Of a stretch of 64,000 nt of DNA, positions 3,231 to 51,200 are shown piece after piece. Origin of the DNA: Octopus vulgaris. Lineage: Eukaryota. Position numbers and translations under genes: made by a program. A model generated the notes under the pieces. It did no database searches. It was not told where the DNA came from and saw nothing but the letters and a program-made list of their open reading frames with translations. The DNA lies in NCBI GenBank assembly GCA_951406725.2, contig OX597828.1:58714001-58778000 (forward strand), read 5' to 3'. The number at the start of each line of letters is the position of its first letter. Position 1 is the first letter of the stretch.

Positions 3231-3449
3231 CCTTCTTCTTCTTCTTTGTTTGACTTTCGCATTACATTTGTACAAGTTGGCTCCAAGTCTCACCCAGAGA
3301 CCTCATGAGACCTCAAGAGTTGGAAGTTCATGCTGGTGTTATGCCTAGGGTGCCATATATTTGGTTTTATACTTAGTGTTGTACTAGTGAATGTCTAAAA
3401 AACCATACAACAATTATGTTTGTTTTAAAACTTGAGATTACAACTTGAG

Positions 3450-3496
<47 letters not shown>

Positions 3497-5329
3497 TGTT
3501 GTTGTTGTTATTATTATTATTACTATCATTATTGTTGTTGTTATTATTATTATTATTAATATTTTTGCATTTTTTCTTTTCAGTTTGCTGTTTTGAACCC
3601 AACATACTACAACAAGTATATAATGCTTAGCACTGTTGTTGCTTGTATGCTAGCCATAGGTATTTACAGATGGATGAAAAGATAGCAAGTTCACTAACAA
3701 TTAATATTTTTACAGTCTTTGTTTTTCTCCATCTCATACACAAACACAAACACACATACGTTATACTTTGTTTATTTTGGAAAGGTGAGAAAAAAAAATT
3801 TGAAACAATTCTCAATATTCTTGCCAAATGACAAATTATTTTCATCAGAAACATTGTAATAATGCCATTTAATTTGACTGAGCAATTTGAAAATTTAAAA
3901 AAAAAAGGGATCTGCAGATTTTCCACTGCTATCAGATAGGTTTGAATAATTTGTACTTCACGTGTTTCTTGATGAAATCTCAGATCTAAGATTCTTAGAT
4001 CATTTGGAACTTTGTTAAAGAAGAATGCTGAAAATGTGTCCAAATATTGTCTGAACTTACCAACTGCGTTCAGTGTCGAAATTTTGAAAGTTTATTCTAT
4101 TCGGTTTTAAATTCAGCAATTTCTGAAATTTATTTTCATTTTGGAGTATCTCTGATCGCTCTCACTCCGGGGACATATTTTGTTCCCACTAAATTAAATA
4201 AAATGTTTTCATTGATAACTTAAAATGAGTTACATAGAATATTTATGAATGACACATTTTTCATAAGAATGAAATTACAAATTTTCTACTTCCAGTTGAA
4301 ATTCTGAATCGGACAATGAATGTTTCATTCTCAGAGCCTAACATTTGTTTTGTTAAGTTACTTCAGTAAATTAAATCTGTCTGTCTGTCTTTTCTCTCTC
4401 TCTCTCTCATATAAATTATCGCATACAAATTATTTGCGCCCAGCTTCTCAATCATTCTACCTCCCATGATTTCCAATGATTTAATACATCTTGATGAAAC
4501 ATTCATATCTTATTAGAATTTTTTCTGTACAGACATATATAAATATATAGATTATATTCCATATACATGTGTGTGTGTGTGTGTGCAGGGGAGGGGTAAA
4601 TATGGCTATATGTATAAAAATATAAACATATCCATTATTCATGTGTATGTGTGTATATATATTTATATATATGTGTGTGAGTGTGTGTATATATCTATAT
4701 GTATATGTGTGTGTGTGTATATCTATATGTATATGTGTGTGTGTGTATATACATACATGCATACATACATACATACATACATACATACATACATACATAC
4801 ATACATACATACATGCATGCATGCAGGTAACCCCAACATTACTGAAAATTTGGCTGAAGCATGGAGTTCTGTAATGCGAAACTTAATTTCCCAGTGATTT
4901 TGTGTTATAAATTGAGATGTGTTCTGTTGAATGGTTGTGTGTTTAAGATGTTCAATCCTCAGCCATGTGATTTCAGGTTCAGTCTTGATGTATGCTACCT
5001 TGGGGGGCAAGTGTCATCTACTGCAGTCCCAGGCTAACCAATGCCTTGTAAGTGAATTTGACATTGTAAGTTCAAGTTGAATGATGTCCATCTTATATGT
5101 ATATATTCATGTGTGTGTGTGTGTGTGTCTTTATATACATATATATATATCAACAAGATATTGTGACAATACAAAAACTGTAGGGTCTAAAGAAACTATA
5201 GAAGTTACTTCAGTATATTAAATCTGTCTGTCTGTCTTTTCTCTCTCTCTCTCTTTCTCTGTGGAGCTTCTGTATTCCCTTCAATTCTTCATTAGATAAA
5301 CTTTCTCTTCCCTCTGGGACTCTAGCAAT

Positions 5330-6300
5330 GCCACCCTATCATTGAATCTTCTATAGTTTCTTTAGACCCTACATTTTTTTCTATTGTCACAATATCTTGT
5401 TGAACTTGATGTCAACTTTCACCTGTGGAAAACCTATAAAGTCATTGATGTAGTCTGACCCTATATTGTGCCAAACACCATTCATAGCTGAGGGTTTCAT
5501 TTTATCCCATGATTCAGCTATGTTTATCAACAATGCTGAACATTGAGCTTTTTCCAGAATCCTCTGAATGCTCCAAACCAATTGCTTTTATGAATTGCAT
5601 AAAAGTTCTCAGCTTGCCTTGATTTTAACTATCTCACCTCGATCCATTGACTGGAGCAAAGAAGTTGAGTTACTGGAGATATATTCAACTCTCAATTTTC
5701 AGAAAGATAATTTGAGTTCACTTGATTGCTTGATGCATTGTTAAAAAAGGAGCAATGCTTTGTTGAAAATATGCTTGACACGGTACCTTTTTACTGCAGG
5801 GCAAAAAATGTTGTTTGTAAACCAGTCTTAAAAAAAGGCTCAAATCATCCAAGCTTATTTGAATACCAAATCACAGACAGATTAAACTTACTTTAGCCCT
5901 TGAAAACCCTAGGATTTTAGGAGTGATCCAATTTAAAGAATTTATATTCATATGCCCTGCAGTATTTCCTCCTACAAAGATCATCATGCGATTTTTGGAA
6001 GCTTTGAACTCTGGTGCTAATTTTCCTTCGCTTTCATTAGAACTTCTTCATAGGTACACACTTTGAGATAATCCCTGTCATTCACATTGTACACTTGTTT
6101 TGGTGAATACTTCTGTCAGCAATAACTTTTGTCAGTTCCACAGCGTAATTAGTAGCAACCTATGTATCAGCACTAGTAGCTTCACCAGACATTTTAACTT
6201 TCAAACCAGTGATTGCTAGCAAGAAAAAGTTTTGCACCATCCACTTTCAGCAAATAATCATAAAAACATTTAGCTTTCACTCAAATGACCATCACATTTA
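5330..6300 (-). mobile_element. Tigger/pogo transposase remnant
   Basis: Minus-strand peptides SGEATSAD, FKASKNRMMIFVGGNTAG, NPRVFKG and SNSTSLLQSMD; heavily degraded. Confidence 0.8.
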
Positions 6301-15512: not shown

Positions 15513-18500
15513 CTAAAAACAATTAAAGAAAGTACAGCTTAGTTTTAAAATATATTTTCAAAGCGAAAAACGAAAACTACTTGGTCATCCATGCTGACAC
15601 AGGATTGATAAACTTGAAGAATTAATAGTTGCTTCTTCATAATTCTTAACTTGTATATTTCCATAGACTACATCATCATCATCATCGTTTAACGCCCATT
15701 TTCCATGCTAGCATGGGCTGGACGGTTCGACCGGGGTCTGGGAAGCCAGGAGGCTGCACCAGGCTCCAGTCTGATCTGGCAGTGTTTCTACAACTGGATG
15801 CCCTTCCTAATGCCAACCATTCCATGAGTATAGTGGGTGCTTTTTATGTGCCACCGGCACAGGGGCCAGAGGAGACTGGAAATACACATTCCAATAATAA
15901 CTGTGTAACAAAATTTTAATTTCTTTTTACCTGTCTTTTGGTCAGTAAGTGTTATTTCCTATTTGCCTCTCTTTAGAAATCAAAGGAAATGACTACAATT
16001 CCCTTCAAACTTTGCTTTTCTTATCTGGACATCAATGTCTTGAAACTGACCCATTTTCCATTACATTTCAGACAGATTCAGCACTGAGCTGCTGAAGAAG
16101 AAATACCTATTTCTTTTCTACTCACAAGGGGACAAACAAGGACAGACAAACGGATTAAGTTGATTACATCGACCCCAGTGCATAACTGGTACTTAATTTA
16201 TCGACCCCAAAAGGATGAAAGGCAAAGTCGACCTCGGCGGAATTTGAACTCAGAACATAACGGCAGACGAAATACGGCTACACATTTTGCCCAGTGTGCT
16301 AACGTTTCTGCCAGCTCGACGCCTTATTTCTGCTGAAGCAGAAATACCATTATAGAAAATATTCTGCTCAATACCACAGATTTCCTTGTCAGTTGCTTGA
16401 CCATAACCACTTAAGCATGTCCCTTAGTAGGCTGACAACATGTGCATCTCTGATCATGAGCGGGAGTGGTGGAGGAGCACCTTATTCATGTGTTTATAGG
16501 GGTTCTGAAGGGTTTGAATAAATGTAACAAAAGCAAAGTTTGAAGGAAATGTTAGCCATTTCTCATACTTTCCAGGGGTCAGCAAATAGGAAATACAAGT
16601 TGCTCCCCATGGACAAAATTCGGGTCATACAGTGTAATAATTGTTTCTGATTTAGGCAGAAAAGCAGTAAGTTTGAAGGGAAGGCTAAGTCAATATCAGT
16701 GACCACAGAACTTGATTGAGACTTCATAGTATTGACCTCCACAAGGATGAAAGGTAAAGTTGGCTCCTGTCAAATTTGAACTCAGATCATAAAGAAATAC
16801 CATGAGGCATTCTTTCCAACAATTTTGCCAAAAGGGCAGCCATTTTGGGGGACGGGATGAGTCGATTGCATTGACCCCAGTGTTTAACTGGTACTTAATT
16901 CATCGACCCCCAAAAGGATGAAAGGCAAAGTCGACCGTGACAGAATTTGAACTGGGAACATAGTGACAGGCGAAATGGTTAGCACACCAAGCAAAATGCT
17001 TGGTATGCTAACCATTCTGCTAATAATAATAATCCTTTCTACTATAAGCACAAGGCCTGCAATATGGGGAGAGGGGGCTAGTTGATTACATCGACTCCAG
17101 TGCATAACTGGTACTTATTCCCCCCAGGATGAATGGCAAAGTCAACCATGGCGGAATTTGAACACAGAATGTTTAAACAGATGAAATGTTGGTAAGCATT
17201 TTGTCTGGCATGCTAACAATTCTAGCAGCTCACCACTTTACTAATAATACTAATAATGGTTTCAAATTTTGGCACAAAACCAACAATTTCAAGTCAATTA
17301 CAACAACCCCCAGTGCTCAACTGGCATTTATTTTATTGACCCTGAAAGGATGAAAAGCAAAGTCAACCTCAGTGGAATTTGAACTCAGAACTTAAAGATG
17401 GGAAAAGATGCTATTAACCCATTCTGCCAGCTTGCTGCCTTCCTCCTCTTCCTACTAATGAATGATGATGATTAACAATCATTAGGACTGATGGACGAGC
17501 CAACAAAATCTTTAAGTTGCATGGAATGGAAATGTTATTAAATAAATAATATACACATCTTCCTCTTACCTGAGTAGCAACATACTGAGCGTGTACCATG
17601 GCTTGTTGGAAGAAGTCACTACTGATGGGTGGTGAAGCACCAATACTATCAGATGTTGATGCTGCATCCTACAATATTAACAAAAAAATAATTATAAGGC
17701 AGAGAAGGAAAAGGAGGAAATCATAAAAGCAGAAATACTATATTTCCTTTGACACGCCGGGCGAAATGCTTAGCGGTATTTCGTCTGCCACTATGTTCTG
17801 AGTTCAAATTCTGCCAAGGTCGACTTTGCCTTTCATCCTTTCGGGGTCGATAAATTAAGTACCAGTTACATACTGGGGTCGATCTAATCGACTTAATCCC
17901 TTTGTCTGTCCTTGTTTGTCCCCTCTATGTTTAGCCCCTTGTGGGCAATAAAGAAATGATATTGAACTCACAACGGCTGAGTCAATCAGCTGACGGTCTT
18001 CCCAACATGAACCTAGCCAGGCAGAAAACAGAAATGATGCATTTAATAAATGAAAAAACTGTTCAGATTCTGACAAAAAGCTCTTAAGAGCTAAACAGAG
18101 ATTACCTGTTGGTCAAAATAGCAGAAACATCTCGAGAAAACCTGCGTTCGTGCATTTCTATTGCTTTTAGATTTTTTTCCTGTTTTTCAGCTACTATTTT
18201 CGGAAAGACTTTTTGCCCCCTCCCCCTCCAATTTCTTCATTTTTCACTTTTTTCCATAACTCTAACCCTAAAATTCCAATCCTAACCCTTACCCTAAAAC
18301 CCCAACCCCAACCCTAACTCTAAAAACCTAACCCTAAAACCAGTACAAATGCACAAACAATGTCATAAATAACAGTGACAAATGAAATATACACCACCGA
18401 TAGTTGTTGTTGTTGACAAACAATGGCAGTAATTTTATTCAGTTGAATACACGTCATTGATTGGTTGAAATTACCGAAATACGACTAACTTAACATGAAA

Positions 18501-18881: not shown

Positions 18882-21800
18882 CATAAATATATACATACAG
18901 TTCTATATTTAAGAGAAGAGGAATTATGTACATTATTCACATTATTTACATTTGACAGATATTTGTCCTCATCTTATTTGTTGTTACCACAACCTTTCAG
19001 CTAATATATCCTCCAGCCTTCATCAGGTGTCTTGGGGAAATATCGAACCTGGGTTCTCATTCCTGAGGTATTTTTCGATATTATTATTACTACACTCTCA
19101 GAGTGGTTGGCGTTAGGAAGGGCATCCAGCTGTAGAAACTCTGCCAGATCAAGATTGGAGCCTGGTGCAGCCATCTGGTTCGCCAGACCTCAGTCAAATT
19201 GTCCAACCCATGCTAGCATGGAAAGTGGACAGTAAACGACGATGATAATAATGATTATTATTATTCAGGTCACTGCCTGGAATTAAACTTGTAATCTTGG
19301 GGTTAGTAGTCCGTGCTCTTAACCACTATGCTATATGGCATAGTGGTTAAGAGCGCTGGCTACTAACCCCATATATAAAATATATACATACATATATACA
19401 TAAATATACATATATTGATAGCCGCGCCTCTTTACTTTCACCTCCTTCTCCAAAAAAAAATTTTTTTTCTTTTTCCTCCCTTGCTTGGCAAACCCCAGAA
19501 AATTCTTTTTAAAAAGGCCAAGAAGTCTAAATTTGAACCATTTTTTGATAAATCCGATAGCATAAAAAAGTGCTAAAAATGTAAATATGATGTAAATAAA
19601 TAAAAGAATATACACAATCATTGGCGGTGCCCCAGCATGGCCACAGCTCATGAGCTGAAACTAGAATCAATCAATCATTCAACATTCTGACACCCTTATT
19701 ATTCTAAATATATATAATGGTCATTTTTTTTAGTTTCTGCTTGCCAAATCCACTCACAAGGCTTTGGTTGGGCCGAGACTACAGTAGAACACTCTTGCTC
19801 AAGATGCCATGCAGTAGGACAGAACTCAAAACCATTTGGTGCGGAAGCAAACTTCTTATCACATAGCCACGCCTCACCCATTATTTACTTTTGAAATTAA
19901 TTCAACAGAAATATATTAAGAAAAGAATGTTATCAGCCACAGCATACAGAATGATGTGTGTGTGAGTGTATGTGTGTGGGGGTGCACATTTGTGTGTGGA
20001 AGCATGCTGCACATTTCCAGGCACTTTGGGATAGTATTTGAAGACTAAATACATATAGCAACTCGGTTGTATGGAAACTATTCTTCTGGTAGAATTTGAA
20101 TGAATCCTTGCAAATCAAAAAACACTACCGGTCAATTGTATAGCGTTTCTGCTGTTTACAAAACACGGGGTAAAATTATTTGATGATAAAAATTCCCATG
20201 AGAAGAGATCCCTAACAATGCTCTGTGAATATGGCCACAGCATATATCAACAGTAACACATTTAAGGATTAACAAACTCGTTTATATTTACACTATGATT
20301 TCATGAGTTTGATCTGTAATTGTCATCAGGTGTCTTGGAACCAAATATGATAATCCCAGACAGGAATTGAACTCAAAACTTTTATATCTTAATGAACTGA
20401 GCTACATGCACGGTGGTCAGACTAAATCCATTCTAGATGCACTCTTTCTTACAAACAATTTAAAAGCAGAAAAAAAATACCAACATTGTTACCAAGCCAA
20501 CTAGGGTGCCACTACAGGATCACAGAACTTGCTAGAAATAACAGCTAAATCTTCCTCAGCACACACACACTGCTAATTTCAAAAAAGGATGGACATATTG
20601 TATAATGCAAACCAGTGGCCATTGCCAGTACTACCTGACTGGCCCTCGTGCCGGTGGCACGTAAAAAGCACCCACTACACTCCTGGAGTGGTTGGCATTA
20701 GGAAGGGCATCCAGCTGTAGAAACTCTGCCAGATTAGACTGGAGCCTGGTGCAGCCATCAGGTTTGCCAGTCCTCAGACAAATCGTCCAACATGTGCTAG
20801 CAGGGAAAGCAGACGTTAAACGATGATGATGATGATGAAAGCTTTAGAAATGCAATTGCTAACAATAATAAAAGTCTGTGGATTCATACATCATCAACCA
20901 TTCTTGCTCTATAATGTATTACAAAACTAAAGAAGGGGAAAATATCAAATACTTTAGAAATGCTTAGTAAAATAAACAAATAAACGTTGTTTGATCCTGC
21001 TGTGTTATGCTTTACAGTATTATATTTTTAGAAATTGATGTGAAGTTTCATTACTTACAGACATTCGAGCTCCTGATGTTGATGGGTCAGAAAAACCTGC
21101 TGGTACACTGGCCGCAGCAAGAGCCGCAGCAAGCTGTGAAGCTGTTATACCCTGAATAGAGCTTCCGTCAAGCTAAATAAAAAGGAGAGAGGAACCACGG
21201 ATTAAGAACCACAGATTTTCTTTTCTCTTTAGTAATGAAGGAATGAAGAGCAAAAATAATTTTGTTAAGATGCAATTCAGAGATAGATATTTAGCTAATA
21301 AAGTAAAAATCTAGCTTAGATCAATACTATCAATACCAAATTTACTACTCTAGACAAGAATTTTATTACTTTTATGAATTTTATAACCCATTTTCCTTAT
21401 TTTACTTGGGCCTGCAAGTTACTTGATGAACTCAATATCAGCATCACAAACCAAAAACAATAACAGCTTCTGTAAAGTGGTTGGTGTTAGGAAGGGCAGC
21501 CAGCAGCAGGAACCCTACCAAAGCTAACATTGGGGCTTGATGCAGTTCTGTAGCTTATCAGATCCTCTCAAACAATCCCATCATTGCCAGCATCGAAAAA
21601 TGGACATTAAATGATGATGGTGATGATGAGGATAATTTAGTCATAACACAAAGTCTAAAGGCTTTGATTATTCACTGGTGTATTGAGAAGTTGGCTTAGC
21701 AGAGTCCTTTCCTACCCACATTATCCTCATAGTAAAATGTTGACTTGAGCAGTTAACAAAAACATTTGTGAATTTTAAGGTGCTTTTGATGTTTACAGTG

Positions 21801-23786
21801 TTATTTCTCTGGTTGAGCTTGCTTGAATTTGTCCAACTTGATCCCATTTTCTAGATCATCCACCACAACCCTGCATAGCAAGGCAACATTCAGGGTTGAG
21901 ACAGATCTGGTCAATGAAAGTTTGTTCCTACTGGACTGACAATCTCTGTTGATCCATGTCAGACTGTTCATAGCAAAGACTCACTAACGAGTTCTTGTCT
22001 AACTCTCCAGCAATGTCCTGCATTTTAACATTCGTGTGTTATACTTACCTGTAAGGGTGACTGTTCTTGGGTATGAAGTGGTGATGCAGATTCTTCATCA
22101 TCTGACATTTGATCAAGAGAGTATGCAGCTGGAAGGAAAAAAAAAAAAAAAAAAAAGAATATACATTGAGTTATGTAAGAATATACATTAGTATGATCAG
22201 AGCAGAAATATATCAGCATGGCTAAAGAGCTTATCAGTAAATTCAAGACTGTTCTATTTGAGCTGAAAACCTAATAACATTACTTCTACAAAAGGTGGAG
22301 AGCTGGCAGAATTGTTAGCATGCTGGACAAATTGCTTAGCAGCATTTTGTCTGTCTTTACGTTCTGAGTTCAAATTCTGCCACGGTCAACTTTGTCTTCC
22401 ATCCTTTCGGAATCAATAATTGCTGGCCTTCTGCCAAACTTTGGAATCAATATTAGTTCTATACTTCCGAAATTTGAAAGTTTACGTTGTATTTCAACAA
22501 CTCTAAACTTCCCAACCAAATATTAATTCCCAAATTTGAAACGAAGGAAAAGATACAGGCAACAAATTTATCCTTACATAGAATTTTAATTTCTTGAACT
22601 TGGATAGAAGACCAGCAAAGACTGTAATATAATTTACTCTTTTACTTGTTTCAGTTGTTTGACTGTGGCTATGCTGGAGCACCGCCTTTAGTCGAGCAAA
22701 TCGACCCCAGGACTTATTCTTTGTAAGCCTAGTACTTATTCTATCGGTCTCTTTGGCCGAACCACTAAGTTACGGGGACGCAAACACACCAGCATCGGTT
22801 GTCAAGCAATGTTGGAGGGACAAACAGACACACAAACATATACACACATATATACGATGGGCTTCTTTCAGTTTCCATCTACCAAATCCACTCACAGGGC
22901 TTTGGTTGGCCTGAGGCTACAGTTGAAGACACTTGCCCTAGGTGCCACGCAGTGGGACTGAACCTGGAACCATGTGGTTCGTAAGCAAACTACTTACCAC
23001 ACAGCCACTCCTGCGCCTATAAATTTAGTTCAATATAACCTTAATACCAAGTAGAAAAGCACTCACCTGAAGACAAAAAGCTCTCCCCAGCCTTAGCTCC
23101 CTGTTCATTGACAGTGGCAGCTATCAACTGGGCAACATGATAAAATGCAGGATGTTCATCGATTATTCTGAAAATTCAAATAAAAATACAATTTAATTAA
23201 GCATTTCAATGTAGAGTCTGAAGCATAGCAGAACAGTTACATATTTAGAAATGAGTAATACGTCATCTCCTCTCACTGCTACTCCAGGGGTTTTTACTCC
23301 TTGGAGTATACTGGTTTCATAACACTGCCTGCACTTTGCTACTCCTGACTCACACATCTGTCTTTCTCTCTCTCTCTCTCTCTCTCACTCATCTTGACAC
23401 CTATATAGTATCTATCCACTCACTTCCAAGTCCTGCATTAACCCCCATACCCAGTCCTTCTTCCCCAGGATGTTGGTCCTCTGGAAACTAGTGAAGTAGA
23501 TGTGGTTTTCCATTAACCACATCTACTTCACTATGTACATATATACATACACATCATATATATATAAAAGGCGGTGAGCTGGTAGAAACGTTAGCACGCC
23601 GGGTGAAATGCTTTGCGGTATTTCGTCTGCCATTACGTTTTGAGTTCAAATTCCGCGGAGATCGACTTTGCCTTTCATCCTTTCGGGGTCGATAAATAAG
23701 TACCAGTTACGCACTGGGGTCGATGTAATCGGCTTAATCCCCTTGTTTGTCCCCTCTATGTTTAGCCCCTTGTGGGTAGTAAAGAA

Positions 23787-23838
<52 letters not shown>

Positions 23839-24293
23839 TTCTTTACTACCCGTCCTGTCTCTCACTGTTATATATTTATTTTTCAACTGTTTATATATAA
23901 TTTTTTTTTACTGTTTATATGTTTGTACTGTCGTTACCGTCTTGCTTTTTTTACCATTTTTTACCCCTCTGCGAAAAGATCTCAGAATTTTAATTGATTT
24001 GCTTTTCGCAGGAAGGAAGTTTCTTCGAAGTATACGTCTCGCTTTTATCCTTCGAAACGTAGAGTAGATGAAACCTTAGCGACTGAAGAAGGGGATTTTT
24101 CGTTGTGCTTATTGTCCTGTATCTCTTTTTTTCTTTTTTGCTTGTCCTGTTCCTTGGTTTGTGTCTATGTTTTTCGTCTCTCTATGTGTTCGACGTCTTT
24201 TTGGTGTCCTGTACACATATATGCGTGTATATGTACATGTAGAGGTAGGTACGTACATATATGTTTATATATATGCATATGTTCTATTATATT

Positions 24294-24330
<37 letters not shown>

Positions 24331-27300
24331 CTGAAGTTGTCTGCAGCTCTTGCTGCGGCCAGTGTACCAGCAGGTTTTTCTGACCCATCAACATCAGGAG
24401 CTCGAATGTCTGTAAGTAATGAAACTTCACATCAATTTCTAAAAATATAATAGTGTAAAGCACTTTTGGCAGTCCATAAAAAAGCGCCTGTGCAATACCA
24501 CGTGTGGTGCCATGTAAAAGTACCCTGCACACTCTGTAAAGTGGTCAGCATTAGGAAGGGCATCCAGTAGTAGAAACCCTGCCAAATCAGAGTGGAGTCT
24601 GGTGCAGCTCCTCAGCCTGCCAGCTCTGGTCAAACCATCCAACCCATGCCAGCATGGACAACAAACATTAAACGATGATGATAATGATTTCAGAATTTAA
24701 TATCACAAATAATATAAAAATTTGCTTACTGTCGAATTTGCTTTGTTTTATGCAGCTGGAGTAAGAGTTTCAAATCCTGGAACATTACTAAAAGACAATG
24801 TGAAAGAAAAGATGTTATTCAATTACCCATTTATTGTGTGATGATGATAAAAATTTTAATTAAATGACAGGTGAGGTTGTTTTGTGAACCTGTCCAAATA
24901 AATCTATTCCACTACAGCATGGGAAAGCAAATAAATATGATGGTAGTGAATGCCATAAGGTGCAAATATTAGATTTATCAGGATAAGGCAAATGGAATTG
25001 CCTAAAAAAAACCCAAAAATCTCACAAGTCTTCAAAAAATTTGCATAGTCCAACAGTTCAGAGATCAGGAAGAATCTTGAAAGTTGCACATTTATACCAT
25101 TACATAGAGTTCAATTGAACACCATATTTTCCAACATAAGTAGAATTTTCAGACCAAAATTGTGAAAAATATAAAAAAAAGAGGGGGATGTTGACTTATA
25201 CATCAAGATGGCTTTGGCAGACCAGAATTTGGAAAAATAGTAATGATGTTTGAATGCTTAAACCAAGCAACAGATTAAGTCTATCGCCCAGAATTCAGAA
25301 CACAAAGAACCAGAAAAAAAAAAAAAAATCATGTGATGCCTTTAACAATTCTGCCAATCCACATTCTGGACTGGCACTTTATTTTACTAATCACCCTACC
25401 CACAAAAAAAAAAAAAAAATCTATCATTTCCTCACACATCCTTCTTCTCTTCTCTGTTGGCACCTCTATCTCTCATTACTAGCATGCATCTCTCTTGCTC
25501 TTCTCCATTACCTCAACCATCATTGCCTCTCCTCCATTACTCCTTTCTATCACAATATCACTGACACTGATTCTCTTCTTGTTCTCTGCCACAACTCTAT
25601 TATCCCTCCCATTAGCCAGGTTATTTCTATTCACTCTTTCAGCAATCCCAAAGATGCCACCTCACAGTCAGGGTGTTTTTATGCAATTTTTTTTAACAAC
25701 ACTGCCCCTCACACTCTTCTGTCATGCTTTCACACCTAACAACCTGGCCCACCTTTATTACTCTCTTCTATCACTCTCCCATTCTGGTTGTCTTCGACAA
25801 CTTTCTCCCTTCTCTCACTTTTACTCCTTGCTCTTATCATCCTGGCTCTCTTCTATCACTTCCTTTCTTTCCCTCAGCCATCTGTGAGGGAAAGAAAGGA
25901 ATGAATAATGAGAGACACTGCAAAAAAGAAAGGATCATTCAGTCTGTATTTAGTTGAGGACAGGACAACCTTGTTAGAGTTAATCATCATCATCATCATC
26001 GTTTATCGTCCGCTTTCCATGCTAGCAGGAGTTGGATGGTTTGACCGGGGTCTGGGAAACCAGGAGGCTGCACCAGGCTCCAGTCTAGTCTGGCAGTGTT
26101 TCTACAGCTGGATGCCTTTCCTAACGCCAACCACTCCATGAGTGTAGTGGGTGCTTTTTACGGCCACGATTGGTTGGTGCTTTTTATGTGCCACTGGCAC
26201 GGAAGCCAGTCGAGGCGGCGCTGGCAATGGCCACGTTCGGATGGTGCTTTTTATGTGCCACCAGCATTGGTATCACAACTAAAATTTCCATTGATTTTTG
26301 GTCGATGAAGAAAAGGTAACAATGAAAGGTAGGGAGAACTCTTTAGTCTCAGCAGAGACAAGACAACCTATTTGATTCCAATGCTGCAATAAATGTACTT
26401 AGGGAGAGTCAGTGAAGTAATTAGCTAGAAGGGCATTTAGATACAGAAACCATGATCCAAATGGAATGTGGTTCCAGGTTCATTTAGGAGGAAAGTAACT
26501 GAAAATAACAACTGATTCAAACTGTAACAATCAGTGCAACCCATATAGCCATAGTAGACGTATGATGGTATGACAATGTTTATTCGAGCGTGATCGTTGC
26601 TAGCATCACCTTACTGGCACCTGTGCCGGTGGCATGTGTAAAAGATTCGAGCGAGGTCGTTGCCAGTACCACCTGACTGGTCCCATACCAGTGGCACATA
26701 AAAGCACCCGCTACACTCTCGGAGTAGTTGGCGTTAGGAAGGGCATCCAGCTGTAGAAACTCTGCCAGATCAGACTGGAACTGGTGCAGCCATCTGGTTC
26801 ACCAGCCCTCAGTCATTTGTCCAACCCATGCTAGCATGGAAAGTGGACGTTAAACGATGATGATGATGATGATGAAAAAGACTTAAGATAAGTAAAATAA
26901 CTTACTTAAAACTGTCATATCATTGGCAAGACCAGGTGTAGTAAGGATTAGGTTTTCCACAGCATCAGAGTCCATCAACATATTTTCAACCTGTAAATTA
27001 ATCCATATTTACAAATTCCAACATAATTTCAAGGGAATTTTCTTGAAACCCTATTATTTGAATACATGTAAATGATATTTTATGTCAAACATGATTACAT
27101 TCTGTTGTTTCTTCTTTTTCCTTGTGCCATCAGGATGCTAAAAATTATTATATTACATTTACAAGGCACTCAACTAATAAGTTCAGTATTATTATTATTA
27201 TTGAGTGAGAGAGCAGAGCATGCCATCAAAGTGACACTGGGGTAAAATATACAAAGCCCAGTATACCCATCATGACTACCCGTCTGATAAGGGTACACCA

Positions 27301-34329: not shown

Positions 34330-37300
34330 TCAAGAACCTCATGTCATTAGACATCTTGAGCCATTGCCATCTCTTCTATGCCACTCAGTATCTTCAGACT
34401 GGCCTTCACTATTTCATCTCAATCATCCTTTCCATCCACTTTAAGTGATTGGCACTTCCTTATAGAGTTGTCCTCATACAAATGACCAAACCATCATAGT
34501 CTTCTTTCTTGCAGCCTGCATCTTTTACTCTTGCATACCTAACTTCTCTCTCTACACTGATGTTGCACATCCACTGGAGCATACTAACTTCATTCCTTTC
34601 TAGTCTATGTGTATCCACTGCTTTCAGGGCCCATGTTTCGCAACCATAGAACATAACAATTCATACACATGCATCATATAATTTGCTTTTCACTGAGAGA
34701 GAGAGAGAGAGACAGAGGCCTTTTGTTGCCAGCAGAAGTTATAGCTCTCTGAACTTTCTCCATCCTATTCTTGTACTAACAACTCTACATTTAGAACATC
34801 CTCCTCCACAACTAATTTGGTCACCTAAGTAACAGAAACCGTCTGCAACCTACAGGGAACTTCCTGGGGTTTTAAGAAAATCTAATTCCTATGTGTTCTT
34901 AGTGTTTATTGTTCCTGTGCATCTGCCACATACAAAGACAACTTTCTCTGTTAATCAATCTGTGATTCTATCACACTTCTTAAGGGTTTACAGCTTGCAC
35001 TGAATTCCTTCCAACACCTTTTCTACATATTGTGCAGGGATTTTTATTTGACACAAAGAGATTATTATCCACTTTCTTGCTAACAACAACTTTGATCTTC
35101 ACTTGGTTAGCTTTAAAACCCTTTGATTCCAGGTTTTGCTTCCATACCTGGAATTTCTTTTTGAATTCTGCTAAAGATTTCACTATAAGAGTGAGGCCAT
35201 TAGCATATAGCAATTCCCATGAGCAGCCAGTCTTAAATTTCTTTGTTATGGCCTGGAGGACTATGATGATGAATGAAAGGAGACTGAGAACTGAGCCCAG
35301 GGGAACTCTTACATGTACACTAAATTGATCATTGTACTAATGGCTAATTCTCACTTTACTAACAACACCCCTATGCATGGCTTGTATAGCTGTAATAAGC
35401 CAGACAACCAGATAATAAACCATAGGAATCTGCCAAAGGCTTTCTCTAAGCCTGGGGTCAGGGAACTTTTTAACCAGTTACCCCAAAATTTATTTATTTA
35501 CATCAATGTTACCCCTTGATTTAAAAGGAAGATTCTTTGAATTGAAAAGAATTATTGAATCTATTTATATGGAAAATGCAATTATAAATATAGAAAGTAC
35601 AAAACAAATGTGATAAAATAAATTAATATTCTCATTATGAAACAAAAGGATTTTTCTAGAAACTTTTTCCCTTTAGGCTCCTGTGCCGGTGACATGTAAA
35701 AAGCACCCATGACACTCTCGGAGTGGTTGGCATTAGGAAGGGCATCCAGCTGTAGAAACATTGCCAGATCAGACTGGAGCCTGGTGCAGCCCACTGGCTT
35801 ATCAGACCTCAGTCAAACCATCCAACCCATGCCAGCATGGAAAGCAGACGTTAAACAACGATGATGATGATGATGATGCTTTGGAGAAATCATGTTTCAT
35901 TTTTATTACAATTACATCAAAATTCGAGCATTTTGATGCCAAAGCATTTTGGATACAGTCTTCGGGGGGTTCAATAGATTACTCTGCTTTGTTTTGATGT
36001 TCATTAGAGTGGAAAACCCTTGTTTGCAAAAGTAGGTGGTTGCAAAAGCCAGCAACGTTTTTCACTGCCTCCTCATACCAAAAAAAAAAAAATTTTTTTG
36101 TCATAACAAGGAATATGTTTTTTTTTAAATATAATTTTACTAATGTCTAATGACTCTTCATTACCCCCAGGAATTTCTTTTTACCCCATTTGGGGTAATT
36201 TACCCTGGTTCACCAACCCTTGCCAATGAATGATCAGTACAACGGTTTACATTTGGCCAAATACTTCTCCTCTAGCTTTTAACTAGGAAGATGGCATTTG
36301 TAATATTCCTCCTTGGCACAAAATCAAACTGCATCTCATCTAGTCTGATTTTGTTCCTAATCATGCTGTAACTCTCTCTGTAACTTTTATGACCTGTCCT
36401 ACAGTTTGATACCTCTGTGATTGTTTCTTTAAATCATCTCCTTTACGCTTGTAACCACTAACTATAATGCTACTACTCCAGTCATTAGATATGACACCTT
36501 CCTGTATCACCTGATTAACTATACAGGTTACTAAGCTGTATCCTATTCCACCAGATATTTTAAGCTTCTCAATGGTAATTTGCAATAGTCCAGAGGCTGT
36601 CCTAGTCTCCATATCCTTCGTTGCTTTATTTATCATACTGCTGTCAACTCTGACGGCTGGCCCTCAGGTGGGTCCATATTAAGGGGACATTCCCTCTCCT
36701 ATACGTTCTCCAAGTTTCATAACTTTTCATAGAGGCATTTCTAATAAGTGCAAGCATACCAGTATTCATTCACACACATTTCTCATCCACAACATCTCTA
36801 TTATCTTTGATACATTGCCTACCAACCCAGAACACCACATGCTCTAGAACTTTGGCAAATATCCTACTTTCTACTCCTCCCTCTGCCATGTAAACTTGTT
36901 GCCTAGCTTCCCCTCTTCTTATTTGATATAATTCTCTGCTGCTATCATTTTTCTAGACCTGCTTTTATAGCGTGATTGTTGCCAGAGCAGCCAACCGGCT
37001 TCCGTACCTGTGGCACGTAAAAGGGCACCATTTGAGCGTGATCGTTACCAACATTGCCTTACTGGCACCTGTGCTGGTGGCATGTGTAAAAAGATTTGAG
37101 CGAGGTCATTGCCAGTATCGCCTGACTGGCCCCCGTGCTGGTGGCATGTAAAAAGCACCCACTACACTCTCGGAGTGGTTGGCGTTAGGAAGGGCATCCA
37201 GCTGTAGAAACTCTGCCAAATCAAGATTGGAGCTTGGTGCAGTCATCTGGTTCGCCAGCCCTCAGTCAAAATCATCCAACCCATGCCAGCATGGAAAGCG

Positions 37301-45900: not shown

Positions 45901-48137
45901 CACCAGGCCCAGTCTGATCTGGCAGTGTTTCTACGGCTGGATGTCCTTCCTAACGCCAACCACTCCGTGAGTGTAGTGGCTGCTTTTTACGTGTCACCCG
46001 CACAGGTGCCAGACGGCGCTGGCAAATGGCCACGGATGGATGGTGCTTTTTATGTGCCACCCGCACGGGGGCCAGGTGAGGCTGGCAACGGCCACAATCG
46101 GATGGTGCTTTTTACATGCCACCGGCACGGAGGCTAGTCGGGGCGGCGCTGGCCACGGCCACTATCGGATGGTACGCTTACGTGTCACCGGCACTGGTAT
46201 CGCAGCTGCAATTTCCATTGATGTTGATCGACTTCGATTTTGGTTCTGATTTCTGATTTGATTTGATTTGATTTGATTTTGATTTTGATTTCCGATTTCC
46301 ACTTGCCTCAACAGGTCTTCACAAGTGGAGTTTTGTGTCCCAAGAAGGAAGGGTATGCATAAGTCGACTGGCTACATACCAAGTAGAGGCCACGGGTAAT
46401 GGTCTCACTAGTCCTGCCGAGTCTTCTGACGCACAGCATACTTCCATAGGTCTCGGTCTCTAGTCATCTCCTCAGTGAGACCTAAAGTTCGAAGGTCGTG
46501 CTTCACCACCTCGTCCCAGGTTTTCCTGGGTCTACCTCTTCCACAGGTTCCCTCAACAGCTAGGGTGTGGCACTTTTTCACTCAACTATCTTCATCCATT
46601 CTCGCCACATGACCATACTAGCGCAAACGTCTCTCTCGCACACCACATCTGATGCTTCTTAGGTCCAGCTTTTCTCTCAAGGTGCTTACACTCTGTCGAG
46701 TATGAACACTGACATTACACATCCATCGGAGCATACTGGCTTCATTTCTTGCGAGCTTACACATATCCTCAGCAGTCACGGCCCATGTTTCACTGCCATG
46801 TAGCATGGCTGTTCGTACACACGCGTCATACAGTCTGCCTTTTACTCTGAGCGAGAGGCCTTTTGTCACCAGCAGAGGTAAGAGCTCTCTGAACTTTGCC
46901 CAAGCTATTCTTACTCTAGCAGTTACACTTTCTGCACACCCACCCCCGCTGCTGACTTGGTCACCTAGGTAACGGAAACTATCAACTATTTCTAGTTTTT
47001 CTCCCTGGAAAGTGGCAGAAGTTGGTCTCAGAGCATTTTCAGTTTTTATTGCTCCTGAGCATCTGCCACATACAAAAACTATCTTCCTAGTTAGCCTTCC
47101 TTTGACATTGCTGCACCTCTTATGTGTCCATAGCTTACACTTGGTGCATCTTATAGAGTTTCTACCTACACCTTTTTTACAGATCGAGCAGCGCCATCTA
47201 CCTGAAGGAATTTGTGATTTGTCTACCTTCCTACTTATTAGTACTTTGGTTTTAGCTATATTGACTCTGAGGCCCTTCGATTCTAATCCTTGCTTCCACA
47301 CCTGAAACTTCTCCTCCAGTTCTGATAGAGACTCAGCAATTAGAGCAAGGTCATCAGCATAGAGGAGCTCCCAGGGGCATCCTGTCTTGAATTCCTCCGT
47401 TATTGCCTGGAGGACTATGATAAATAGGAGGGGCTGAGGACTGAGCCTTGGTGGACCCCTACCTCTACCCAGAATTCTTCACTGTACTCGTTGCCAACCC
47501 TCACCTTACTAGCAGCGTCCCTGTACATGGCTCGCACAGCTCTCACTAACCATTCATCTATCCCTAGTTTCCTCATTGACCACCAGATAAGGGATCAGGG
47601 GACCCTGTCGAAGGTTTTCTCCATGTCAACAAAAGCCAGGTACAGGGGCTTGTCTTTGGCTAGGTATTTCTCCTGCAGCTGCCTTACCAAGAATATAGCA
47701 TCAGTGGTACTTTTCCCTGGCACGAACCCAAACTGCATCTCATCTAAACTAACTCTCTCTCTAATTAGTTGGGCTATAACCCTCTCCGTAACCTTCATTA
47801 CCTGATCTAACAGCTTGATACCTCTGTAATTATTTGTATCTAGGGCATCACCTTTACCTTTGTAGCAGTTGACTAGTATGCTGCTGCACCAGTCATTGGG
47901 TATGACTCCTTCGTGTATCACCTGGTTGACTATACGGGTGACTAGGCTATAGCCAACACTACCAGATATTTTGAGCATCTCTGCAGTGATTCCTGATGGG
48001 CCTGGGGCTTTCCCTGTCTTCATGCTTCTAATTGCCTTAACTACCAAGGAACTGTCAACTCGGATAGCTGGTCCCTCTGTTGGGTCAACATTTGGCAGAC
48101 TCTCTTTATCCCATTCATTTTCTTTATTCAGCAACCT

Positions 48138-48222
<85 letters not shown>

Positions 48223-51200
48223 CACATGAGTGGCTGTGTGGTAAGTAGCTTGCTTACCATCCACATAGTTCTGGGTTCAGTCCCACTGCATGGCACCTTG
48301 GGCAAGTGTCTTCTACTATATCCTCGGGCCGACCAAAACTTTGTGAGTGGATTTGGTAGACGGAAGCTGAAAGAAGCCTGTCGTATATATATGTATATGT
48401 ATATACATGTGTGTCTGTGTTTGTCCCCCCCCCAACATCGCTTGACAACCGATGCTGGTGTGTTTACATCTCCGTAACTTAGCAGTTCAGCAAAAGAGGC
48501 TGATAGAATATGTACTAGGCTTACAAAGAATAAGTCCTGGGGTCGATTTGCTTGACTAAAGGTGGTGCTCCAGCATGGCCGCGGTCAAATGATTGAAACA
48601 AGTAAATGAGTAAAAGAGAGTAAAGAGTATATATAATTAGCTGAGGCATTGCTAGACTAATAACCTTTATTCAGTCGATAAAAACTTTGATGAAGTTACA
48701 TCTTGATTTCTCTTACTATTTATATTTTGAAGGAAAGTCGATCCTCTGTTATTGCACGGCCCCTGGAAATAAACGAAGTTGAAAAAGGAATAAATGCATC
48801 AATGAAGATAGTTCAGGTAAGGTAAAACAGAATTCAAGTGGAATGGCATGGTTGGATGGATAAGTGATTGATGTTGTATCGAAGTGGAACTTGAGCAGAA
48901 AAGATGAGAGAAAAGACTGAAAGAATTAGGCTGGAAAAGATGTTGGAAAAGATGAGAGAAAAGACTGAAAGAATTAGGCTGGAAAAGATGTTGGGAAAGA
49001 TGAGAGAAAAGACTGAAAGAATTAGGCTGGAAAAGATGTTGGAAAAGATGAGAGAAAAGACTGAAAGAATTAGGCTGGAAAAGATGTTGGAAAAGATGAG
49101 AGAAAAGACTGAAAGAATTAGGCTGGAAAAGATGTTGGAAAAGATGAGAGAAAAGACTGAAAGAATTAGGCTGGAAAAGATGTTGGAAAAGATGAGAGAA
49201 AAGACTGAAAGAATTAGGCTGGAAAAGATGTTGGAAAAGATGAGAGAAAAGACTGAAAGAATTAGGCTGGAAAAGATGTTGGAAAAGATGAGAGAAAAGA
49301 CTGAAAGAATTAGGCTGGAAAAGATGTTGGAAAAGATGAGAGAAAAGACTGAAAGAATTAGGCTGGAAAAGATGTTGGAAAAGATGAGAGAAAAGACTGA
49401 AAGAATTAGGCTGGAAAAGAGAAAAGATGAGAGAAAAGACTGAAAGAATTAGGCTGGAAAAGATGTTGGAAAAGATGAGAGAAAAGACTGAAAGAATTAG
49501 GCTGGATGAAAGATGTTGGAAAAGATGAGAGAAAAGACTGAAAGAATTAGGCTGGAAAAGATGTTGGAAAAGATGAGAGAAAAGACTGAAAGAATTAGGC
49601 TGGAAAAGATGTTGGAAAAGATGAGAGAAAAGACTGAAAGAATTAGGCTGGAAAAGATGTTGGAAAAGATGAGAGAGAAAAGACTGAAAGAATTAGGCTG
49701 GAAAAGATGTTGGAAAAGATGAGAGAAAAGACTGAAAGAATTAGGCTGGAAAAGATGTTGGAAAAGATGAGAGAAAAGACTGAAAGAATTAGGCTGGAAA
49801 AGATGTTGGAAAAGATGAGAGAAAAGACTGAAAGAATTAGGCTGGAAAAGATGTTGGAAAAGATGAGAGAAAAGACTGAAAGAATTAGGCTGGAAAAGAT
49901 GTTGGAAAAGATGAGAGAAAAGACTGAAAGAATTAGGCTGGAAAAGATGTTGGAAAAGATGAGAGAAAAGAAAAGACTGAAAGAATTAGGCTGGAAAAGA
50001 TGTTGGAAAAGATGAGAGAAAGACTGAAAGAATTAGGCTGGAAAAGATGTTGGAAAAGATGAGAGAAAAGACTGAAAGAATTAGGCTGAAAAGACTGAAA
50101 GAATTAGGCTGGAAAAGATGTTGAGAAAAGATGAGAGAAAAGACTGAAAGAATTAGGCTGAAAAGATGAATTAGGCTGGAAAAGATGTTGGAAAAGATGA
50201 GAAAAAGACTGAAAGAATTAGGCTGAAAAGATGGAAAGATGAGAGAAAGACTGGAAAAGATGTTGGAAAAGATGAGAGAAAAGACTGAAAGAATTAGGCT
50301 GGAAAAGATGTTGGAAAAGATGAGAGAAAAGACTGAAAGAATTAGGCTGGAAAAGATGTTGGAAAAGATGAGAGAAAAGACTGAAAAGAATTAGGCTGGA
50401 AAAGATGTTGGAAAAGATGAGAGAAAGGCGGAAAAGATGTTGGAAAAGATGAGAGAAAGAATTAGGCTGGAAAAGATGTTGGAAAAGATGAGAGAAAAGA
50501 CTGAAAGAATTAGGCGGAAAAGATGAAAAGATGAGAGAAAAGACTGAAAGAATTAGGCTGGAAAAGATGTTGGAAAAGATGAGAAAAGATGTTGGAAAAG
50601 ATGATGAGAAAAGACTGAAAGAATTAGGCTGGAAAAGATGTTGGAAAAGATGAGAGAAAAGACTGAAAGAATTAGGTTGGAAAAGATGTTGGAAAAGATG
50701 AGAGAAAAGACTGAAAGAATTAGGCTGGAAAAGATGTTGGAAAAGATGAAAAGAGAAAAGACTGAAAGAATTAGGCTGGAAAGATGTTGGAAAAGATGAG
50801 AGAAAAGACTGAAAGAATTAGGCTGGAAAAGATGTTGGAAAAGATGAGAGAAAAGACTGAAAGAATTAGGCTGGAAAAGATGTTGGAAAAGATGAGAGAA
50901 AAGACTGAAAGAATTAGGCTGGAAAAGATGTTGGAAAAGATGAGAGAAAAGACTGAAAGAATTAGGCTGGAAAAGATGTTGGAAAAGATGAGAGAAAAGA
51001 CTGAAAGAATTAGGCTGGAAAAGATGTTGGAAAAGATGAGAGAAAAGACTGAAAGAATTAGGCTGAGAAAAGATGAATTAGGCTGAAAAGATGTTGGAAA
51101 AGATGAGAGAAAAGACTGAAAGAATTAGGCTGGAAAAGATGTTGGAAAAGATGAGAGAAAAGACTGAAAGAATTAGGCTGGAAAAGATGTTGGAAAAGAT

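Follow-up and report, generated by a model that had tools for sequence, protein, structure and literature searches.

How did an inverted copy of the end of a coding exon come to lie in an intron of the same gene, and could such a copy turn the pre-mRNA into a target for editing or regulated splicing? This question is raised by the UBL7 locus of Octopus vulgaris, which we analysed in a window of 64,000 nt (all positions refer to this window). Our verdict, based on sequence analysis, is that the copy is a recent templated patch and a candidate RNA-duplex substrate. As to how it arose, we hold it to be marginally more probable than improbable that this very recent patch was made at the insertion of a young Penelope-like element, and that its consequences for the RNA are probably small.

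The host gene lies on the minus strand and has 10 coding exons, and its product is identical to records named "ubiquitin-like protein 7" in O. vulgaris and O. sinensis. Coding exon 5 (24730..24787, minus strand, 58 nt) lies upstream of the inverted copy and is followed by exon 6 (23067..23167, minus strand, 101 nt), exon 7 (22049..22128, minus strand, 80 nt) and exon 8 (21059..21172, minus strand, 114 nt). Exon 8 is of phase 0-0, so that its skipping preserves the reading frame, and the linker encoded by its 3' half is gapped, variable and poorly conserved. The annotated exon skip in UBL7, common to the records of the two species, is not that of exon 8 and concerns exon 9 (17570..17668, minus strand, 99 nt), which is missing from the X2 isoform. 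A protein lacking exon 8 was found neither among the 6 cluster members nor as a separate octopus match. Of UBL7 relatives in metagenome contigs, 137 pattern matches were obtained and none was confirmed.

The source arm (21008..21129, minus strand) takes in 71 nt at the end of exon 8 and the adjoining 51 nt of intron 8, with the GTAAGT splice donor. Its inverted copy (24341..24462, plus strand) lies in intron 5, with the exon sense on the plus strand and antisense in the pre-mRNA. After reverse complementation 120 of the 122 positions are identical, and both differences (21017 and 21125 in the source, 24453 and 24345 in the copy) sit at junctions, at most 10 nt from the ends. The preliminary description of this DNA had thus read the arrangement correctly: a 122-bp inverted copy with 2 differences, covering the stated parts of exon 8 and intron 8, placed in intron 5 and closing a loop of about 3.2 kb around exons 6 and 7 (together 181 nt, frameshifting when skipped). 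The core of the copy (24346..24452, plus strand) is 100% identical to the source over 107 nt and is likely the true templated tract. A 191-nt query across exon 8 gave 2 matches in the species' own 2.8-Gb genome, namely the exon and the copy, which excludes chance and a repeat family within the reach of that search; membership of a repeat family was rejected on this ground. The sequence that donated the copy is intact, occurs once and lies 3212 nt away in UBL7 itself.

At its right end the copy leads into an older high-copy repeat (24453..24688, plus strand). Relatives of this repeat are 79-90% identical to it, and the final 10 nt of the copy overlap with its head motif. Nine of these nucleotides (24454-24462) form a microhomology with the source. 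In the 13 family heads listed, the motif at the head of this repeat agrees with the right end of the copy, which explains the one C-C mismatch between the two arms without any mutation. At its left end a 13-nt linker of uncertain origin (24328..24340, plus strand) separates the copy from a (TA)n tract (24306..24327). This linker is similar in sequence to the opposite strand adjacent to the source end (21131-21145), a match equalled or beaten by only 2 of 3000 random windows, and it also resembles the head of the older repeat: taken with the first 6 nt of the copy, it scores 14 against one of the 13 heads, the same as against the opposite-strand source (14), and 2-9 against the other heads. The likeness to the opposite strand suggests template switching at the left junction. 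Neither an A tail nor a poly(A) tract was found at the copy junctions, and no target-site duplication is visible at the insertion-bearing allele.

The (TA)n tract adjoins the constant end of a truncated 454-nt piece (23852..24305, plus strand) of a very young element that targets (TA)n and has head-to-tail units of about 870 nt; this piece ends 35 nt from the left end of the copy. We compared it with 34 fetched copies, which are its top matches and so biased towards close relatives, and against 18 of these it shows 1 substitution in up to 449 nt. The constant end is common to all 34 within a few bases and the other end is variably truncated, with lengths ranging from 345 to at least 4978 nt. 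Head-to-tail partial tandems (pseudo-LTRs) of the units of about 870 nt occur, one array reaching 5.8 kb, and (TA)n directly follows the constant end in each of the 24 element loci displayed. An Rfam search on 941 nt, the window holding only half of the unit, gave no hammerhead match; its 10 matches all fell below the gathering score and were set aside as TA-rich chance matches to miRNA families. Canonical Penelope-like elements (PLEs) carry a hammerhead ribozyme in the terminal repeat, and Naiads lack it. The neighbour shares with PLEs, in particular with Naiads and non-autonomous derivatives, the single truncated end, the head-to-tail partial tandems and the (TA)n site, and is probably a non-autonomous Penelope-like retroelement; with the constant end taken as its 3' end, it would run antisense to UBL7. 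In the one long array traced to its end (30 kb), no reverse transcriptase (RT) or GIY-YIG frame was found joined to it. Naiads are described as preferring (TA)n and as occurring in Octopus (PMC8557442), and passages on PLEs report that these can move intron-containing host sequence in trans, leaving palindromic junctions (PMC3846280). The upper bounds for a chance adjacency of copy and element, calculated post hoc with all 2058 candidates counted as copies, are about 1e-4 overall and 1.3e-3 given the (TA)n tract.

The truncated end of the element borders a perfect palindrome of 78 nt centred on (TA)n (23774..23851), a fold-back duplication of the left flank. Scars of a similar kind were surveyed at the other element copies. 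One of them, L075, carries a 288-nt, 97% identical inverted copy of its flank at 164 nt beyond the constant end, and another, L086, carries a long fold-back. Fold-backs were counted at 1 of 33 other element copies and, among the control (TA)n tracts, at 3 of 201 (p=0.46), a count which set aside L059, with arms that seem part of a palindromic repeat also present beside L066, and L064, which has no left flank; near-junction rows of L054, L061, L065 and L072 were likewise set aside as repeats, judged by eye. Including the window copy gives p=0.15 and including the doubtful L058 gives p=0.04, and a single case of the L075 type has a probability of P=0.21 from background. Inverted patches as a general product of this element family were rejected, the enrichment not being significant. 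In 464 kb of sequence we found 8 other inverted pairs, of which 6 were examined: 2 belonged to repeat families and 4 were single-copy local patches, one with a repeat at one end. These four have diverged (93-98% identical to their sources), and the nearest (TA)6+ tract is 829-5234 nt away from them, so patches arise without this element as well. At a density of roughly 2-22 per Mb, single-copy local inverted patches are common in the octopus genome.

Since mismatches are confined to the ends of the copy, its core is perfect, microhomology marks its junction and a young element and a palindrome lie beside it, these surroundings look like a fresh insertion scar and not like an evolved switch. 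In the reading that we slightly favour, a young Penelope-like element would have inserted at the (TA)n tract in intron 5 of UBL7. A broken end in the older repeat would have annealed via the 9-nt microhomology to intron 8, 3.2 kb off, been extended by about 107 nt into exon 8 and then been rejoined beside the element, and the other junction of the element would have been closed by fold-back synthesis. The template may have been DNA or nascent unspliced pre-mRNA, the geometry being compatible with both. A more far-reaching version, which we consider quite improbable, holds that the RT of a Penelope-like element inserting antisense was primed on the nascent, unspliced UBL7 pre-mRNA and returned part of this RNA to the locus as DNA, instantly creating a perfect editing-complementary sequence (ECS) through which exon 8 is measurably edited or its splicing altered. 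A single run would then have copied patch and element on one strand, and a piece captured in this way would necessarily be inverted relative to the gene.

The patch may also owe nothing to the element. A double-strand break in the head of the older repeat could have received a templated insertion of the class 2 type with short homology at both ends, the young element having landed separately in the adjacent (TA)n. The possible reading of the linker, together with 6 nt at the start of the copy, as what is left of the repeat's head, given the one head that ties with the source (14 vs 14), agrees with this, as do the frequency of single-copy inverted patches and the distance of the other four from (TA)n tracts. 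It requires, however, two very young events within 35 nt of each other, improbable by chance, and the fit of the linker to the opposite strand adjoining the source is equalled or surpassed by no more than 2 of 3000 random windows; we judge an independent patch unlikely. Much less probable still is an artefact of assembly or polishing, in which the copy, or only its perfect identity, was made in silico. The left flank, a young multi-copy element with (TA)n, is a poor anchor and polishing could homogenise the arms, but the contig measures 78 Mb with no N in the window, the junctions are biologically typical (microhomology into an old repeat, fold-back) and the similar patches elsewhere are diverged from their sources. 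The usual long-read chimera, moreover, differs from a 107-nt inverted patch at 3.2 kb. We find it hardly credible that the arms are an old, selected regulatory duplex held identical by concerted evolution: the copy does cover exactly the donor and an in-frame exon, but it shows no compensatory changes or internal mismatches and is embedded in a brand-new insertion complex, and there is a tendency, weak in pre-mRNA, for long duplexes of near-perfect pairing to be purged (PMC7006430).

The nearest known systems for the copy are the class 2 templated sequence insertion polymorphisms (TSIPs), with which we group templated insertions by MMBIR or polymerase theta. TSIPs share with the UBL7 copy a short patch, an intact donor, microhomology at the junction, the lack of poly(A) and a linker that is short and untidy, and intronic sequence is a known class of template for them (PMC5110952). 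Unlike class 2 TSIPs, with their distant donor, the copy derives from a local donor in the same gene, 3.2 kb away; it is moreover inverted, spans an exon-intron border and adjoins a fresh retroelement insertion. Captures by PLEs, as described in the passages compared, lie between pseudo-LTRs at new sites, whereas the UBL7 patch lies outside the constant end of the element and comes from the very gene that was hit; a short capture of this type was not found in those passages.

On the RNA level, the two arms are predicted to form a duplex of 122 bp and -225.4 kcal/mol with one G-U pair, one unpaired position and 107 uninterrupted pairs, bearing out the G-U wobble and C-C mismatch named beforehand. 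Folding each arm in a 722-nt segment (within 300 nt of the arm), a scope smaller than the 3.45-kb span that holds both arms, put the cost of opening local structure at 39.1 + 34.6 kcal/mol (about 74). In an RNA that carries the two arms together, a stable duplex is predicted, much stronger than its local competitors. The arm holds 13 exonic adenosines, 9 of which are silent and 4 recoding (S240G, D247G, T250A and M255V), matching the codons given previously (AGT, GAC, ACA and ATG). Inside the duplex we found neither mismatches nor compensatory changes, the only two differences being at the ends, and tuned ADAR features were rejected as an explanation of these since both are junction positions.

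Whether such a duplex is formed often is another matter. Coleoids edit far more than human. In human, Alu editability declines on a length scale of about 800 bp; it is reduced when the pair spans gene segments and dips at very high identity (PMC4066801). Applied to the 3212 nt between the arms, this human rule gives 0.018 (about 2%) of the near-neighbour value, rising to 0.17 if introns 6 and 7 leave first and the loop shrinks to 1397 nt. By this analogy, the 3.2-kb spacing and the position of the arms in different gene segments lead us to expect weak editing. We infer that the duplex would form in a minority of transcripts, before removal of intron 5, with at most low and unselective editing and no regulated switch. 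A newborn active element would instead form its duplex frequently enough for ADAR edit clusters on both arms, recoding of S240, D247, T250 or M255, weakening of the donor, or in-frame skipping of exon 8. The energy balance (-225 against about 74 kcal/mol), the unique partner without same-family competitors and the preserved frame speak for it, as do sources describing abundant neural recoding in coleoids (PMC9068888) and young near-identical repeats as prime ADAR targets (PMC9989829). The spacing and segment layout speak against it, and so do the absence of exon 8-lacking members in the cluster (0 of 6), the annotated skip falling on exon 9 and the location of the recodable residues in a variable linker; on balance we rate it rather unlikely. 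UBL7 had no row in the searched supplement files of PMC8382921, PMC9699675, PMC6881472 and PMC9989829, files that may lack named site tables. The "built-in switch" proposed at the outset is unsupported, given the scar-like junctions, the commonness of patches, the distance and intron layout, and no exon 8-skipped protein found. The anatomy does permit an exon-intron duplex, and the suggested snapshot of a new editing substrate agrees with the youth of the copy. The copied letters are indeed unique and not repeats, but the event that brought them into intron 5 was probably connected with the insertion of a repeat.

The ECS duplexes known so far are conserved and imperfect, and most of them reach into the next downstream intron. 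Like the intronic ECS of ADAR recoding sites of the GRIA2 type, the UBL7 copy is an intronic complement, within one pre-mRNA, of the end of an exon together with its donor; unlike these, it is perfect, lies upstream with two exons in between and is evidently new, and as an editing substrate it is a candidate. With inverted pairs of Alu or other young repeats it shares a long near-identical inverted arrangement within one pre-mRNA as a probable by-product of mobile-element activity, but its arms are single-copy coding sequence, shorter (122 bp vs about 300) and farther apart than well-edited human pairs (PMC4066801). In the titles and abstract openings searched, with subscription literature mostly outside that scope, we found no described case in which a local inverted copy of an exon gave rise to an editing substrate.

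Most work on the origin of coleoid recoding sites concerns local hairpins in coding sequence or repeat pairs. A locally templated inverted patch would be a third route, in which a single mutation renders the entire end of an exon double-stranded. If capture from pre-mRNA were true, the roughly 2-22 patches per Mb would represent an unrecognised and continuing source of ADAR recoding clusters in coleoids; if the copy has no effect, it is nothing more than an ordinary repair scar, of which there are probably thousands, in the linker of a housekeeping-type protein. Since the UBL7 copy is recent, pairs with a unique partner and could still be polymorphic, alleles with and without it would offer a natural control for editing and splicing. 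With respect to exonisation of the antisense copy itself, two acceptor-like sites were scored, accompanied by weak donors only.

UBL7 lies on the minus strand in 10 coding exons (exon numbers here count coding exons only), and its product is identical to the ubiquitin-like protein 7 records of Octopus vulgaris and O. sinensis. Intron 5, between exon 5 (24787-24730) and exon 6 (23167-23067), contains at 24341-24462 a stretch identical at 120 of 122 positions to the reverse complement of 21008-21129, with differences at 21017 (copy position 24453) and 21125 (24345). The source arm consists of 71 nt of exon 8 (21172-21059; 114 nt, phase 0-0) and 51 nt of intron 8. The loop encloses 181 nt of exonic sequence (exon 6 and exon 7, 22128-22049), the predicted duplex has one G-U pair and one mismatch, and four of the 13 exonic adenosines in the arm are recoding ones, the same four that had been named beforehand. 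A 191-nt exon 8 query against the species' own genome (2.8 Gb, 227 contigs) returned two matches, the exon and the copy, in a search that ignores very common words and whose match number is not a copy count. The copy is genuine at the assembly level, and the preliminary description of it was correct. On the plus strand, at 24340-24411, an AG created by the difference at 24345 and the copied donor frame the copy, and an exon of ~65 nt would be possible in a putative antisense transcript.

Judged by its junctions, the copy is most plausibly a patch templated recently, in connection with the insertion of a young retroelement. Leftwards from it come a 13-nt linker, 22 nt of (TA)n and a 454-nt piece (23852-24305) of a very young element: at 24289 the piece differs from all 34 fetched copies, and against 18 of them this is its only difference, gaps aside, the 34 being drawn from the 40 best matches and hence biased to close copies (reported identities of 100 are rounded values). 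One end is constant among the element copies, with (TA)n next to it in 24/24 printed loci, and the other is cut short at differing points; units of ~870 nt stand head-to-tail in arrays of up to 5.8 kb. This anatomy matches that described for Penelope-like elements, of which the Naiads favour (TA)n and are present in Octopus (PMC8557442). The single long array that was followed had no reverse-transcriptase frame attached to it, and no Rfam hammerhead match was obtained in the 941 nt searched, so that 'Penelope-like' is here a purely anatomical term. The family, sampled at loci L053-L086, is apparently still active, with near-identical copies across many contigs; no autonomous partner was identified along the followed array. 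At the element's truncated end, 23774-23851 forms a perfect 78-nt palindrome centred on (TA)n, a fold-back copy of ~20 nt of the flank. The linker's origin is ambiguous: only 2 of 3000 random windows align better with it than the opposite strand just past the source end, and among 13 older-repeat heads one matches it with equal score.

That older repeat (24453-24688), bordering the copy on its right, belongs to an old high-copy family; relatives are 79-90% identical, and the alignments of several of them run on into the copy's final 6-13 nt. Its head motif equals the last 10 nt of the copy plus the following base, which makes 24454-24462 a 9-nt microhomology common to source and target; the base behind the C-C mismatch at 24453 then probably belongs to the target and did not arise by mutation. 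The other mismatch (24345) lies 5 nt from the copy's left end, in a CpG and at a third codon position where it is silent; it may stem from the junction, reflect an allele or be a single mutation. The 107-nt core between them (24346-24452) has zero differences. The bottom-strand order (old repeat, patch, linker, (TA)n, element) is that which a single synthesis run would yield, in which a break end would prime on intron 8, run into exon 8 and then switch to the element. On this strand the patch reads as a cDNA of UBL7 pre-mRNA and DNA invasion would give identical letters, so that its sequence fits either template. Penelope elements are reported to mobilise intron-containing host sequence, with palindromic junctions (PMC3846280), and class 2 templated insertions to show microhomology, to lack poly(A) and to allow intronic sources (PMC5110952). 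That a Penelope-like reverse transcriptase captured the host gene's own nascent RNA, at once making an active editing substrate, we regard as improbable.

Whether element and patch arrived together was weighed against chance and against other element copies. Chance adjacency to a young copy has an upper bound of ~1e-4, or 1.3e-3 given the (TA)n tract, both bounds being post hoc and taking all 2058 candidates as copies. At the oriented element locus L075, the element's left flank recurs inverted over 288 nt at 97% identity (3816-4101 / 5142-5425), 164 nt past the constant end, between two right-flank copies and near the contig end, and at L086 (oriented, ~3385-3530) a long fold-back palindrome of flank occupies the truncated end. 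Set against these cases, clear fold-backs occur in 1/33 other element copies and 3/201 control tracts (p=0.46), the excess reaching p=0.15 when the window is counted and p=0.04 when the doubtful L058 is counted, and one L075-type case is expected from background with P=0.21; L059, L064 and near-junction rows of L054, L061, L065 and L072 were left out of these counts. A general link of the family to fold-backs or inverted flank copies is not significant, and this counts against it. Taken together, the adjacency bounds and the L075 and L086 cases make a single complex event likely for the UBL7 locus, short of proof. Short tandem duplications were also seen at the truncated end in L054, L063 and L083, and at L082 (oriented, 280-2728) duplications of 0.2-1 kb, inverted as well as direct and 99% identical, form a complex arrangement ~0.9 kb away from a young element copy.

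The window and 200 kb on either side (464 kb) were surveyed for pairs of at least 40 nt, at least 90% identity and at most 20 kb apart, giving 9 low-copy inverted pairs, including the UBL7 copy, and 4 direct rows. Six of the eight other pairs were checked genome-wide: two were repeat families and four single-copy at full length, one of these carrying a repeat at one end. The four are 5150-5204 / 5348-5403 in the window (56 nt, 95%) and L116 6332-6639, L126 5051-5323 and L106 3791-4005 (215-308 nt, 93-98% identical, partners 640-1290 nt away). None lies near a (TA)6+ tract (829-5234 nt), and none looks coding by eye. The density in this single region, 8.6 single-copy patches per Mb (95% interval 2.3-22), would scale to a genome-wide number in the thousands to tens of thousands, hundreds of them exon-containing before selection, on the assumption that an exon is touched by a few percent of the sources. 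Inverted patches being common by this scaling, the UBL7 case would represent a frequent process, as the youngest of its local examples. Our preferred reading places it in a widespread class of local inverted copies, an exon end and its donor having been taken here by chance.

The copy had been proposed as a built-in dsRNA switch, by ADAR editing or splice masking. Pairing of the arms is predicted at -225.4 kcal/mol, and opening the best local structures (up to 300 nt) around each arm would cost 39.1 and 34.6 kcal/mol, folding having covered the arms and 300 nt around each; for any effect, kinetics matter more than duplex stability. In human Alu pairs editability decays on a scale of ~800 bp, is lower when the partners sit in different gene segments and drops for pairs of very high identity (PMC4066801). 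Applied to octopus by analogy, this rule would give 0.018 of the near value at 3212 nt, or 0.17 with introns 6 and 7 removed first. Neural editing is far higher in coleoids (PMC9068888), where an analysis of transcript sequences explained site clusters mostly by structures spanning from tens up to a few hundred nt (10.1101/2021.06.16.448723). Selection acts against near-perfect duplexes, weakly in pre-mRNA (PMC7006430). On paper the copy may resemble an editing-complementary sequence, but that class forms imperfect duplexes, unlike this one. The four recodable residues fall in a gapped linker that is divergent even in Argonauta.

Being 114 nt in phase 0-0, exon 8 would preserve the frame if skipped. 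Neither the 6 cluster members nor any separate octopus match is a protein lacking exon 8, which is weak evidence because gene models miss minor forms. The annotated short isoform (X2), in records of both O. vulgaris and O. sinensis, keeps exon 8 and lacks exon 9 (17668-17570). Exon 9 is flanked by an inverted repeat pair (16127-16298 / 17753-17924; 90% over 172 nt, 1455 nt apart), a candidate loop-out that would fit the known isoform better than the exon 8 copy does, and by a second inverted pairing (16860-16976 / 17778-17893). Elsewhere in the window, 48898-55796 is a 6.9-kb tandem array of a ~48-nt unit; many indels separate the units, and both strands carry open frames that are long and repetitive. 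A 286-codon open frame at 46621-47478 (minus strand) resembles, by eye, a LINE reverse-transcriptase fragment and has older relatives at 2179-2932 and 34554-35391.
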